A DNA stretch of 14,092 nt from a virus: the UHGV virus genome UHGV-1666403, one strand, 5' to 3'. The notes under the pieces are model-generated. The model saw nothing but the letters and a program-made list of their open reading frames with translations, was not told the origin of the DNA and ran no database searches. Positions 1 to 14,092 of this stretch are shown piece by piece; the first letter of the stretch is position 1; every line of letters starts with the position of its first letter. The translations under genes were made by a program, and so were the position numbers.

Positions 1-106
1 TTGGTGATTTTGAACTTTTGCTTTGCCACGGAACGGTCTGCGTTGTCGGGAAGATACGTGATCTGATCCTTCAACTCAGCAAAAGTTCGATTTATTCAAC
101 AAAGCC
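1..106. mobile_element. IS903-family (IS5 family) insertion sequence, terminal 106 bp only; body of element lies left of the window
   Basis: Reverse complement of 89..106 is GGCTTTGTTGAATAAATC, the 18-bp terminal inverted repeat I recognise from IS903/Tn903. The whole of 1..106 reads as the IS903 end sequence (revcomp GGCTTTGTTGAATAAATCGAACTTTTGCTGAGTTGAAGGATCAGATCACG...CAAAATCACCAA), about one mismatch from the copy I remember. The same 18-mer recurs at 14039..14056. Boundary is +/-1 bp (a C at 107 could extend the repeat). Confidence 0.8.
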
Positions 107-133
107 CCTCCAGTGCTCCAGATATTGAATGGC

Positions 134-736
134 CTATGCCTCCGGCAGTTCAGGCCAGATGACATCCGGCGCGGTGCTGGTATCTGTTGCCACCACCGCG
201 TCAATGTAATCCAGCACAGCGTTAAGTCTGGTTGTTTCTTCCTGCGTAAGTTTACGTCCGGCCTGTAATTTCAGCTGAATCAGACCGACGGAATTCATTG
301 CTGCATCAATCAGTGACTGGCGTTGGATTTCTGCCGCGTCCACTGCGGCGCTACATTGTGCCTCAGTATCCGTCACCCATTTCTCACCATCCCATTTATC
401 GTATGGTGTTAACGGGGCGATAGTGGTTGTATTTTCGGGGTAATCACCCAGAGATGTGATTTCTTTCGATTCTCCTGTTTCGGTGCTATAGACCGTTTCA
501 CCGCGATGGTCTGACACATATTCCCATGAGTTTAAATCTACCGTTCGGCAGATTGCATAACCAGCTTTGTTTGAGCCAGGAGCATCTAAACAGGAATGCG
601 CCGGAATACCGACACCCACCGCAAGATACTCAGTTGATGTGGATATATATTCCCGCGTTTCTCCGTTGTAGTTATAAACGGTAATGAAGCCGGGTTCCGT
701 GGCAATAAATTCACTGTTTAATTTTGCCTGTGTCAT
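134..736 (-). CDS. G: Tail fiber assembly chaperone (P2 G / lambda Tfa family)
   Basis: 200 aa ORF directly downstream of the tail fiber gene. Contains Tfa-family motifs (DHRGETVY, KWDGEKWVTDTEA, and C-terminal TDTSTAPDVIWPELP resembling lambda Tfa VDTSTAPDIEWP). Start ATG at 736 overlaps the H stop (TAATG). Confidence 0.9.
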   Translation of the reverse strand: MTQAKLNSEFIATEPGFITVYNYNGETREYISTSTEYLAVGVGIPAHSCLDAPGSNKAGYAICRTVDLNSWEYVSDHRGETVYSTETGESKEITSLGDYPENTTTIAPLTPYDKWDGEKWVTDTEAQCSAAVDAAEIQRQSLIDAAMNSVGLIQLKLQAGRKLTQEETTRLNAVLDYIDAVVATDTSTAPDVIWPELPEA

Positions 737-1974
737 TATGCAGCCCTCACAATGTAGTTAAATGCAATGTTGCGGGGGCGCGTTTCATTTCCGCCGGTGT
801 CGTCGGTATCTCTGCCTGCACTGCCGTTAAAATCGTATACAGCACCAGTCCCTCCATCTACAGCCCAGGCTCTAAAAAACGAAAAATTGTGGTGGTGCGC
901 TTTAAATAAATCGGACTGCGCCGAGAGAAGCGCGCGCCCTGCATCCACCCCGCGCCCATCATCCCATCCACGAATAAACTCACCGCGTAAATCAGGTAAT
1001 TTATTTGTTGGATAAGCCTTTGCCAGTTCCGGGTATTCTTCAGCAGAAAATGCCGCACCATTGCATTTCAGCCAGCCTGTTGGAGGAGTGGCTGAAGGCC
1101 ACGGAACAGGTACACCAACGGGTAACGCTGAGCCTTCTCCCAAACCAAGGTATGTGAGAAGACCAGCTACATCCTTTCCACTCAAATGAGTCAGCGTATT
1201 GTCCAGCGGTTGTTTACCTGCCAGCGCATTGTTAATGGTGGTACTGAATTTCGGGTCATTGTTAATGGCTGCGGCAATTTCTTTCAGTGTATCCAGCGTG
1301 GCAGGCGCACCGTTAATCAGAGCGGTAATAGCAGCCTGTACAAACGCAGTGGTCGCAATCCGCGTGGTGTTATTTCCTGCGGCAGGCGTCGGCGCTTTTG
1401 GTTCTCCGGTAAATGTCGGATTATGTTTCTGTGCATACTGGGTATGAGGATCCTGTGCGGCAATGTGGTTTCTCATCTGTTCATCCACATACAGCCTTAA
1501 TTCCAGGACTTCATCATCCACGTATTTACGGGTCGCCAGTACCACCGATGGGTCGATTTTCAGCGTAATAGCTTCGGTATTCGTGACAACCAGAATCATG
1601 CGGATAGTCTGGGTACGACCACTGCCTTCCTGCAACTGCGGTTTGTACGTTTCCGGGCAGTTCGCCACCGCAATGAGTACGCCTTCATCATCATAAAGCC
1701 CAATCTCACGGATCCAGAATCCGCCCTCGTTCTCAGGGATGATTTGCTCCGCAATAATCTGGCTCTGGTTGTTCGGGTCAACACTCAGAAGATTCAGCGG
1801 TGCAATGCGTTTCTGATTAATCAGTTTTGTCTGTGCCGGGTCTGGTGTCGGCAAGACACCATTCGCATCACCAACGGCCATTTGCGTCAGATTCAGCTTA
1901 CTGCCGAGCATCGTCGCGTTAGCCAGCCGTGCCGCGCCCTGATTAGTCAGAATGGCGTAGTATTTCACTGTCAT
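736..1974 (-). CDS. H: Tail fiber protein (P2 H-like N-terminal domain; C-terminal tail-collar-type receptor-binding domain)
   Basis: 412 aa. The N-terminus (TQMAVGDANGVLPTPDPAQT, GGFWIREIGLYDDEGVLIAVANCPETYKPQLQEGSGR) matches the conserved N-terminal domain of P2 gpH-type fibers. The C-terminus (LPDLRGEFIRGWDDGRG...GNETRPRNIAFNYIV) looks like a phage tail collar domain. Position between baseplate I and chaperone G. Start overlaps the I stop (ATGA). Confidence 0.9.
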   Translation of the reverse strand: MTVKYYAILTNQGAARLANATMLGSKLNLTQMAVGDANGVLPTPDPAQTKLINQKRIAPLNLLSVDPNNQSQIIAEQIIPENEGGFWIREIGLYDDEGVLIAVANCPETYKPQLQEGSGRTQTIRMILVVTNTEAITLKIDPSVVLATRKYVDDEVLELRLYVDEQMRNHIAAQDPHTQYAQKHNPTFTGEPKAPTPAAGNNTTRIATTAFVQAAITALINGAPATLDTLKEIAAAINNDPKFSTTINNALAGKQPLDNTLTHLSGKDVAGLLTYLGLGEGSALPVGVPVPWPSATPPTGWLKCNGAAFSAEEYPELAKAYPTNKLPDLRGEFIRGWDDGRGVDAGRALLSAQSDLFKAHHHNFSFFRAWAVDGGTGAVYDFNGSAGRDTDDTGGNETRPRNIAFNYIVRAA

Positions 1975-3835: not shown

Positions 3836-4467
3836 AGAGGACTCCCGGTTGTGCCGCCGCTGTCGCCGGGGTGTTTATGGGTATGCAGTACCTTACCGTT
3901 TGATGAGAGTTCACCGCCGGTATGTTTAATGTTGCCGCGCATCGTCCCGCCCTTCTGCACTTCCAGCGTGCCGGTAATCAGTCTGTTGGTGCAGACCACC
4001 TCCGGGGTGTCCAGGGTGATGCGGGTTGACGCTTTCACCATGACCACCGGCACCGTGGCAGTAACAGAATCAGAAGCCGTCACGCTGGCCGTTTTAATTC
4101 CGCTTACCGTGAGTGCACTGGTTTCGGGTTCATACTCAATCACCGCCCCGTCAGGGAAACGGATATGCAGGGCATCCGCCGACGTAGACGGCGCGGGGTT
4201 ATCGCCGGAATAAATCCCCGGCAGAACGAACGCCGTGTCGAGTTCACCGCCCACGGCCAGAATCAGCACCTGTTCCCCCACGGAAGGTGCCCACCATGTG
4301 CGCGAACGTCCGGCGCGATGGGTCAGCCACTGAAGCCAGTCGGTGCACATGCCGCCGGTCTGCACACGGCAGCGACCGGCGTTAAGGTCGGTTTCGACGA
4401 TAATGCCGGTGCGGATCATGTTGCGCAGTGCGCGCGCGAGTTCCTGAATATTTGCGAGAGTGTTCAT
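3832..4467 (-). CDS. V: Baseplate central spike/hub protein (P2 gpV)
   Basis: 211 aa, first gene after the S-V intergenic gap. C-terminal His-rich tip (KVLHTHKHPGDSGG) resembles the metal-binding apex of gpV-type spikes. Confidence 0.88.
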   Translation of the reverse strand: MNTLANIQELARALRNMIRTGIIVETDLNAGRCRVQTGGMCTDWLQWLTHRAGRSRTWWAPSVGEQVLILAVGGELDTAFVLPGIYSGDNPAPSTSADALHIRFPDGAVIEYEPETSALTVSGIKTASVTASDSVTATVPVVMVKASTRITLDTPEVVCTNRLITGTLEVQKGGTMRGNIKHTGGELSSNGKVLHTHKHPGDSGGTTGSPL

Positions 4468-4533
4468 AACGGGAAGGATGCCGCCGGGTCATACCGGCGG
4501 CAATGTGCCGATGAGGTGTCGGGAATGGCACAA
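4468..4533 (-). promoter_or_regulatory. Putative internal late promoter region (by position analogous to P2 P_V) with a GC-rich hairpin
   Basis: The only substantial intergenic gap (66 bp) in the tail operon. Perfect 8-bp inverted repeat GCCGCCGG (4480..4487) / CCGGCGGC (4494..4501) with a 6-nt loop. A TGT-N10-ACA dyad at 4517..4532 abuts the S stop. No -10/-35 assignment made. Confidence 0.3.
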
Positions 4534-4986
4534 CTAACGGTCGAGGTGAGCCAGGATAATCTCTTCAATCATCTGCACATCCTCACCGGTAAAGCCGAGC
4601 AGAGGACGCGCCGGATAATCAATTTTCTTACCGTCTTTCCGGTTTTCTTCCGACAGACCGAACTGATGCACACTGGCGATTTTCGGCGACTTCCCGCCGT
4701 AAAACTCCATTGATGCCTGCTCCGGGCTGGCGCGGATATGCAAAAAACGACTGGTGATAAGTTTCGCAAACATTTTTCGCTTAACGCGACCGGTCTTTTT
4801 TCTGGCGCTCTGCTGCTGGCGTGGCACGTAGGGTGTGCCGTCCGGGGCTTTCTGTGCCATCACCCGACGCTGCTGACTCTGCCGCAGACGTTTCGCCAGT
4901 TCGGCACTCAGTCGTCGACGCCCTGACGGTGACAGCGACTCAATCAGTCCGGTCAGCCGGTCTTCAAAACGCTTAAACTCATTCAT
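4534..4986 (-). CDS. S: Tail completion / virion morphogenesis protein (P2 gpS family)
   Basis: 150 aa ORF downstream of R (8-nt overlap), with P2 synteny. Basic central region. Confidence 0.8.
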   Translation of the reverse strand: MNEFKRFEDRLTGLIESLSPSGRRRLSAELAKRLRQSQQRRVMAQKAPDGTPYVPRQQQSARKKTGRVKRKMFAKLITSRFLHIRASPEQASMEFYGGKSPKIASVHQFGLSEENRKDGKKIDYPARPLLGFTGEDVQMIEEIILAHLDR

Positions 4987-13736: not shown

Positions 13737-13877
13737 CACCCCGTCATCACGCCCTCACACGCTCACCACAGCACAAAACATCCCGCAAACACACCAACAC
13801 CCCAACGGGCAGACTAAACGCCGCCACGACGCGCTCAGACGCTGAAAAAATAAAATCAGCACCACCGCCAGCGCGCA

Positions 13878-13896
13878 GTGCTTTCCCCGCCTCGCC
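13878..13896 (-). other. cos site: P2-type 19-nt cohesive end sequence
   Basis: 13878..13896 is GTGCTTTCCCCGCCTCGCC, whose reverse complement GGCGAGGCGGGGAAAGCAC is the cohesive-end sequence I recall for P2. It sits about 170 bp beyond the Q stop, as at the P2 left end. Confidence 0.7.
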
Positions 13897-14038
13897 CGCC
13901 CGCTTCATGGGTCGGTTTGAATGCAGTTGAATTACAACTACCAAACCAAGCAATCCCTACTATTACGCAGAAAATGCATACTGAAATACCTCGTGCAAAT
14001 TGATGCAGCTAAGTATGCATAGGTTTTATGCCTCAACG

Positions 14039-14092
14039 GGCTTTGTTGAATAAATCAGATTTCGGGTAAGTCTCCCCCGTAGCGGGTTGTGT
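14039..14092. mobile_element. IS903-family (IS5 family) insertion sequence, first 54 bp only; body of element lies right of the window
   Basis: 14039..14056 is GGCTTTGTTGAATAAATC (the same 18-bp terminal repeat as at 89..106, in inverted orientation), followed by AGATTTCGGGTAAGTCTCCCCCGTAGCGGGTTGTGT, which I recognise as the opposite IS903 terminus. Confidence 0.8.

Follow-up and report, generated by a model that had tools for sequence, protein, structure and literature searches.

Late genes of a P2-like prophage between two IS903-group ends

The window (the whole stretch of DNA analysed, 14,092 nt) is the late-gene half of a P2-like prophage in reverse. Its minus strand carries G, H, I, J, W, V, S, R, the lysis genes, X, L, M, N and O, and its plus strand P and Q, as read from the list of open reading frames and Pfam labels. 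Both edges lie in insertion sequences (IS). The features on which the argument rests are:

1..106, minus strand: IS903-group IS, transposase-proximal end, 100% identical to IS903B copies
89..106: 18-bp terminal inverted repeat, GGCTTTGTTGAATAAATC on the minus strand, read from the sequence
107..162, plus strand: 3'-end remnant of tfa' (an alternative, convergent tail-fibre assembly gene), 17 codons and a TGA at 160-162, assigned by homology to IS-free relatives
134..736, minus strand: G, tail-fibre assembly protein, 200 aa (Pfam Caudo_TAP, E=4e-31)
736..1974, minus strand: H, tail fibre, 412 aa (Pfam Phage_tail_fib and Collar)
1135..1160: orphan 26-bp crossover site of the Din family (Pin/Gin/Cin type), TTCTCCCAAACCAAGGTATGTGAGAA, assigned from relatives
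13869..13887: P2-type cos cohesive end, GTGCTTTCCCCGCCTCGCC, the reverse complement of GGCGAGGCGGGGAAAGCAC, read directly from the sequence
14030..14038: target site GCCTCAACG of the right-hand IS903B, duplicated beyond the IS in siblings
14039..14092, minus strand: second IS copy, a true IS903B, transposase-distal end, read from the sequence and in the same orientation as the left copy

The stop codon of G is a TAG on the minus strand at 134-136, and the source name attached to the exact G sequence is 'tail fiber assembly protein [Klebsiella pneumoniae]'. The exchangeable receptor-binding tip of H is encoded by the codons from 736 to ~1147. Between V and S (window ~4467-4534) the window has a gap of 66 bp; in some relatives an extra plus-strand gene lies there, for a hypothetical protein or a DUF2971 protein (L006 13494-14087; L004 12981-13850).

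Exact-sequence look-ups of the G, H, M and P proteins retrieved a few dozen public assemblies of the same prophage. The same look-up with the portal protein Q returned only other lineages, because Q is too conserved, while M and P are lineage-specific. Two of the retrieved contigs (L034 and L035) are 100.000% identical to the window over all 14,092 nt, and L008 is 100% identical over the shared 10,736 nt. Short-read assembly broke at the IS903 repeats, which is why the window, as a contig, has IS sequence at both of its ends. Since it holds only 106 nt of the left IS, the sequence further left was read from other, identical assemblies, and we infer that the window's own genome is the same as that of its 100%-identical siblings.

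The host of the prophage is Klebsiella pneumoniae, with integration between cpxP and fieF. FieF of the chromosomal flank is exactly FIEF_KLEP7 (K. pneumoniae); its sole 100% match in the contig scan was a stray contig in a Raoultella metagenome-assembled genome. We also considered an E. coli host, as the phage genes are ~97% identical to those of E. coli P2-like prophages. This was rejected because the identity of the chromosomal flank to E. coli reaches only 86.5% and because FieF is the exact K. pneumoniae protein.

A complete IS903-group element next to G

The original prediction, made from the window alone, placed an IS903-type inverted repeat 27 bp past the G stop, with IS sequence running to the window edge. 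Both statements held. The IS903 18-bp inverted repeat GGCTTTGTTGAATAAATC is matched exactly, in reverse complement, by positions 89-106 (GATTTATTCAACAAAGCC), and the spacing to the G stop is exactly 27 bp (107-133). Window 1-106 is identical to IS903B ends at 106 of 106 positions. Over window 1-110, the identity to copies on plasmids with the annotation 'IS5-like element IS903B family transposase' is likewise 100% (E=2e-50), and plasmid records that match 1-110 at ≥95% number more than 5,000, which places the IS903B match far beyond chance. The transposase gene could start at TTG 72-74 or GTG 27-29, and it runs leftward, in the same direction as G.

At least five contigs span the left IS (L008, L009, L010, L014 and L034). 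The gene order is the same in each: G, 27 bp, IS, 145 bp, FI, FII, E, T, U, D, ogr, fieF, pfkA. In these siblings the IS is complete, with a length of 1055-1056 bp (1056 bp in the contigs that are 100% identical to the window, at 10631-11686 in L008) and a far end that reads GGCTTTGTTGAATAAATA. Its transposase is intact, with 322 or 307 aa depending on the start, and matches DDE_Tnp_1_5 and DDE_Tnp_1 as well as NCBIfam transpos_IS5_2 (351 bits; L034 and L008). The full element of ~1.06 kb with an intact transposase that the original prediction proposed to check for is therefore present; it is a complete IS903-group element of 1056 bp between G and FI and appears to be functional.

The left IS shares with IS903B and the IS903 group (IS5 family) the identical 18-bp inverted repeats, the single DDE transposase of 307/322 aa and the length of 1056-1057 bp. 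Unlike the right-hand copy, however, the left IS is only 89.0% identical to annotated IS903B. The two are identical only over nt 1 to ~200, and the remaining ~850 nt differ at ~116 positions. The usual threshold for IS isoforms is ~95% nucleotide identity, following ISfinder practice; identity at this level over the whole element is seen for the right IS (99.4%) and not for the left.

A promoter and terminator scan of window 1-800 returned nothing between G and the left IS, and the transposase gene has the same direction as H-G. As no terminator-like site separates H-G from the transposase gene, late transcription may enter the latter, and read-through from the late operon is thus possible.

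Both flanks of the left IS are remnants of an invertible tail-fibre switch

IS903-group elements create 9-bp target duplications. Such duplications flank the copies that we used as controls, namely TTGCTGAAG in L004, TCGTTTGGG in L006 and GCCTCAACG at the right-hand IS in L039. The left IS, in contrast, lies between CACTGGAGG and TTGGCCTGT, and the 9-bp duplication contemplated in the original prediction is absent.

The closest IS-free relative is E. coli 30EVA1 (L007). The near flank of the left IS maps to L007 8999, and the match of the far flank ends at L007 7097, a point within an invertase gene and 86 nt from its 3' end; L007 7098-8998 (1,901 bp) is missing. In L007, this interval holds a convergent tfa' (Caudo_TAP), fragments of alternative fibre tips and a 197-aa serine recombinase with Resolvase and HTH_7 domains, and tfa' converges on G with a 29-nt overlap. 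L006, L004 and L002 have the same switch architecture, as has the P2-like phage KC618326, whose recombinase gene bears the annotation 'phage DNA invertase'. All four of the IS-free or differently interrupted relatives examined contain the invertible tail-fibre segment (tfa', alternative H tips and serine invertase), and the invertase gene is intact in L007, L006, L004 and L049.

Pieces of this segment remain on both sides of the left IS. Homology to the IS-free relatives begins at 107-109, under their second, convergent gene annotated 'tail fiber assembly protein'. The tfa' remnant amounts to 56 nt and shares its last 29 nt with the 3' end of G, and the 27-bp 'spacer' at 107-133 is the 3' end of the lost convergent tfa'. 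Directly beside the IS, a stretch of ~13 nt (window 107-120) differs at 3 positions from the tfa' ends of the relatives. Beyond the IS, 86 nt of the invertase gene are left, and its last 27 codons, GLSTLYKKFPASVTKNKLCHPLANRDK followed by the stop, match the C-terminus of the L007 invertase.

A further trace lies within H. H of L007, L006 and L004 also contains the 26-bp site, and in all three the invertible segment carries inverted partners of it; in L002 and L004 the site adjoins the invertase gene. A second, inverted 26-bp site was found in four of the four relatives scanned (L002, L004, L006 and L007). The window lineage has no second site, the single copy at window 1135-1160 corresponding to L008 9577-9602, and the partner sites of the relatives lie in the stretch that is deleted here.

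In the Din-family switches (e14 Pin, Mu Gin, P1 Cin and that of Peduovirus magyaro, KC618326) a 26-bp site likewise lies inside the fibre gene and the cassette consists of a fibre tip plus tfa, and inversion has been documented in P2-like prophages (PMC4272514). Here, the overlap of G with tfa' and the invertase C-terminus are recognisable remnants of such a switch. In contrast to those switches, this one has lost the catalytic domain of the invertase, the partner sites and the alternative cassette. With 27 codons of the invertase gene, one crossover site and 56 nt of tfa', the switch is a relic. The two remnants and the relatives, which are ~97% identical, indicate that the ancestral state was probably an invertible segment; an IS-free genome of the very same lineage was not found among the public assemblies retrieved. 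Switching would accordingly have been lost, and the tail fibre is presumably locked in the H-G form that is now expressed. The host-range switch is thus destroyed, probably leaving the phage with one fixed tail fibre.

In related prophages, the silent part of the invertible segment or the fibre tip has been hit by other, independent IS insertions: an IS903-group copy in tfa' of L004 (7051-8106) with the duplication TTGCTGAAG, ISEc12 in L006 (5578-7880), where it separates the invertase from the alternative tip, and IS903B inside the H tip of L015 (1-21).

A probable IS-associated deletion would explain the missing duplication

We interpret the left IS as the mark of an IS-associated deletion of ~1.9 kb that removed most of the invertible tail-fibre switch, rather than as a simple insertion into cargo, and we give this reading a probability of roughly 0.85. 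The deletion explains the missing 9-bp duplication. The identity and completeness of the IS, its flanks, the end points of the deletion and the retained genes can be read directly from the spanning contigs. The route is less direct. Either intramolecular transposition, giving an 'adjacent deletion' of the kind known from IS903, or recombination between a pair of like-oriented IS copies would have removed the ~1.9 kb, and both routes fit the data equally. Adjacent deletions by IS903 have been described, as has the loss of target duplications by deletion or by IS-IS recombination (PMC11708052). As in the scars left by either process, the IS is kept here, the duplication is absent, and the flanks are collinear with the reference yet 1.9 kb apart. 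We noticed no notable difference from these scars.

A different origin for the element was favoured at first. The left IS could be a hybrid made in place, by recombination of an IS903B in tfa' with a different IS903-group element in the invertase gene. Its composition, IS903B over the first ~200 nt and divergent over the remainder, would fit such an event, and so would the absence of a duplication, as expected from recombination between two copies. This was downgraded on finding the architecture of the left IS on plasmids. The element matches a 1056-bp IS903-group type that is common on Klebsiella and E. coli plasmids (CP088883.1 119619-120674, 99.1%), and plasmid elements of the same make-up (98.9-99.1%) carry perfect 9-bp duplications of their own, AGATGAAGC and GCGTATTGC. 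The left IS is thus a circulating IS903-group type that need not have arisen in place, and the data are accounted for just as well by an adjacent deletion or by two identical copies of this type. We now give the in-place hybrid only a small chance.

Whichever route led to the deletion of the switch, the genes beyond it are kept. The original prediction had left the remaining tail genes either beyond the IS or deleted; they lie just beyond it, with FI after 145 bp and FII next, and they are not deleted. The 145 bp that remain ahead of FI align with the activator site and the promoter pF of the P2 annotation. The Ogr-dependent promoter of the F operon and the tail genes FI-FII-E-T-U-D-ogr are intact. 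Since the F promoter and all tail genes are kept after the IS, tail synthesis need not be affected.

The Z/fun hotspot without cargo

In P2-like phages, the interval from G to FI is known as the Z/fun hotspot, in which a DNA invertase is reportedly common and tail fibres are often swapped (10.1101/2024.10.15.618418). The original prediction assigned the left IS to the Z/fun cargo position of P2 and proposed that the slot was occupied or truncated by the IS, with the cargo either beyond it or deleted. The position is correct: the IS lies in the G-FI interval, with the pF promoter and FI directly downstream, likewise as in P2. The slot is also truncated by the IS. The cargo, however, did not materialise. 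G and FI are separated only by the IS and 145 bp, and the relatives hold an invertible tail-fibre segment in this slot instead of fun(Z) or another cargo gene. A tblastn search with the N-terminal 420 aa of Fun(Z) from P2 found no homologue; the best hit had E=0.17 and lay inside Q.

A simple insertion of the IS into an anti-phage cargo slot, with the cargo genes beyond it or displaced, would agree with the recognised position of the Z/fun hotspot. For the sibling assemblies it is refuted: the left IS has no target duplication, FI follows 145 bp after it with no open reading frame between, a Fun(Z) homologue is lacking, both flanks of the IS are remnants (of tfa' and of the invertase), and defence-like cargo, a PDC-S39 candidate, is found at the other hotspot, beyond Q. 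We therefore regard this explanation as very unlikely, and nothing in the sequences indicates that Z/fun or anti-phage cargo was ever present in the G-FI slot of this lineage.

The IS-associated deletion of the inversion switch has little significance beyond annotation. Each of its components is already known, namely the IS903 group, the loss of duplications by deletion, the G-FI hotspot and inversion in P2-like prophages, and an IS that replaces an inversion switch is ordinary prophage damage, not a new system. The G-FI hotspot of this prophage hides no defence cargo. In the mining of P2 hotspots, the window is to be scored as 'IS scar, former invertase module'.

The right-hand IS and the neighbouring cargo

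The IS end at the right edge of the window, which the original prediction missed, reads GGCTTTGTTGAATAAATCAGATTTCGGG... and its 18-bp inverted repeat occupies window 14039-14056. In L039, GCCTCAACG is present on both sides of a single IS of 1057 bp. L040, L042 and L033 have an IS903B-acyltransferase-IS903B arrangement (Acyl_transf_3, 339 aa) with the same outer duplication of GCCTCAACG, and the right-hand copy of L033 is 99.4% identical to annotated IS903B. The right-hand IS is a simple insertion of IS903B ~150 bp beyond cos, at the old/tin hotspot. EC9952 was considered as a genome sharing this right-hand IS and was rejected, as its copy lies elsewhere, has the duplication TCGTTTGGG and was inserted independently. 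In L033, an IS110-family element (640-2000) lies inside the terminal inverted repeat of the outer IS903B, the repeat being cut after GATTTATTCA.

Beyond the right IS, L039 encodes an intact 610-aa DUF7380 protein (14213-16045) at the old/tin hotspot between Q/cos and gene A. This protein matches the PADLOC candidate defence family PDC-S39 (E=2e-84). This PDC-S39-like protein, and not the G-FI slot, is the likely anti-phage cargo of the prophage; its gene, the real defence candidate, is located at this second hotspot, immediately beyond the window's right-hand end. NCBIfam returned no names for the acyltransferase or for the 610-aa protein.

Both ends of the window are ends of IS903-group elements in direct orientation, and a true IS903B-acyltransferase-IS903B composite adjoins in some siblings, which could suggest that the 13.9-kb block between the like-oriented ISs is itself a composite transposon or translocatable unit carrying phage late genes outside an intact prophage; this is highly improbable, as the collinear P2 order continues on both sides (A and cargo beyond the right IS, FI to ogr beyond the left), the outer flanks form no matching duplication, the block sits in its native location, and the two IS copies are of different types and only 89.5% identical.

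A junction shared with E. coli prophages of another type

The junction of G with the left IS, TTCAACAAAGCCCCTCCAGTGCTCCAGATATTG (the IS end and then CCTCCAGTGCTCCAGATATTG), is identical to the base in E. coli L001 (8001-8200), L003, L005 and L011 (2872-2932). These four loci belong to a different type of prophage, with a Mu/SfV-like tail, gtr genes and a location in the argW/dacD or yagU region. Their homology to the window (99.3% for L011, 93.6% for L001) ends at 1149-1151, the breakpoint of H with other prophage types and the core of the crossover site. Beyond the IS, L001, L003 and L005 have a truncated native tfa, and L011 has the acyltransferase composite. The E. coli IS copies are mosaics, which have the window-side part in common and switch to IS903B at different points.

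The IS of L011 combines the G-side flank of the left IS of this prophage with the acyltransferase-side flank of the neighbouring composite. It has the structure expected of the reciprocal product that a crossover between the left IS and an IS of the acyltransferase composite is predicted to give.

These junctions suggest that a fibre-tip cassette may have passed from one genus to another, flanked on one side by the invertase site and on the other by IS homology, and they would provide a small concrete example of tail-fibre module exchange across genera. That the H tip and G travelled between phage families and genera as one unit bounded by the crossover site and the IS is a tentative proposal, to which we assign clearly less than even odds. 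If true, IS903-group elements and Din sites would serve as portable ends for the exchange of host-range cassettes between Klebsiella and Escherichia prophages.

Among the matches listed, the acyltransferase part was not found in complete E. coli genomes. The same IS903B-acyltransferase-IS903B unit is present at L011 2900-6355, on an E. coli chromosome, and at L040 13138-16593, in a K. pneumoniae P2-like prophage, and the inner junctions of the two units, ACACTGAAG... and ...TTGACTGAT, are identical.
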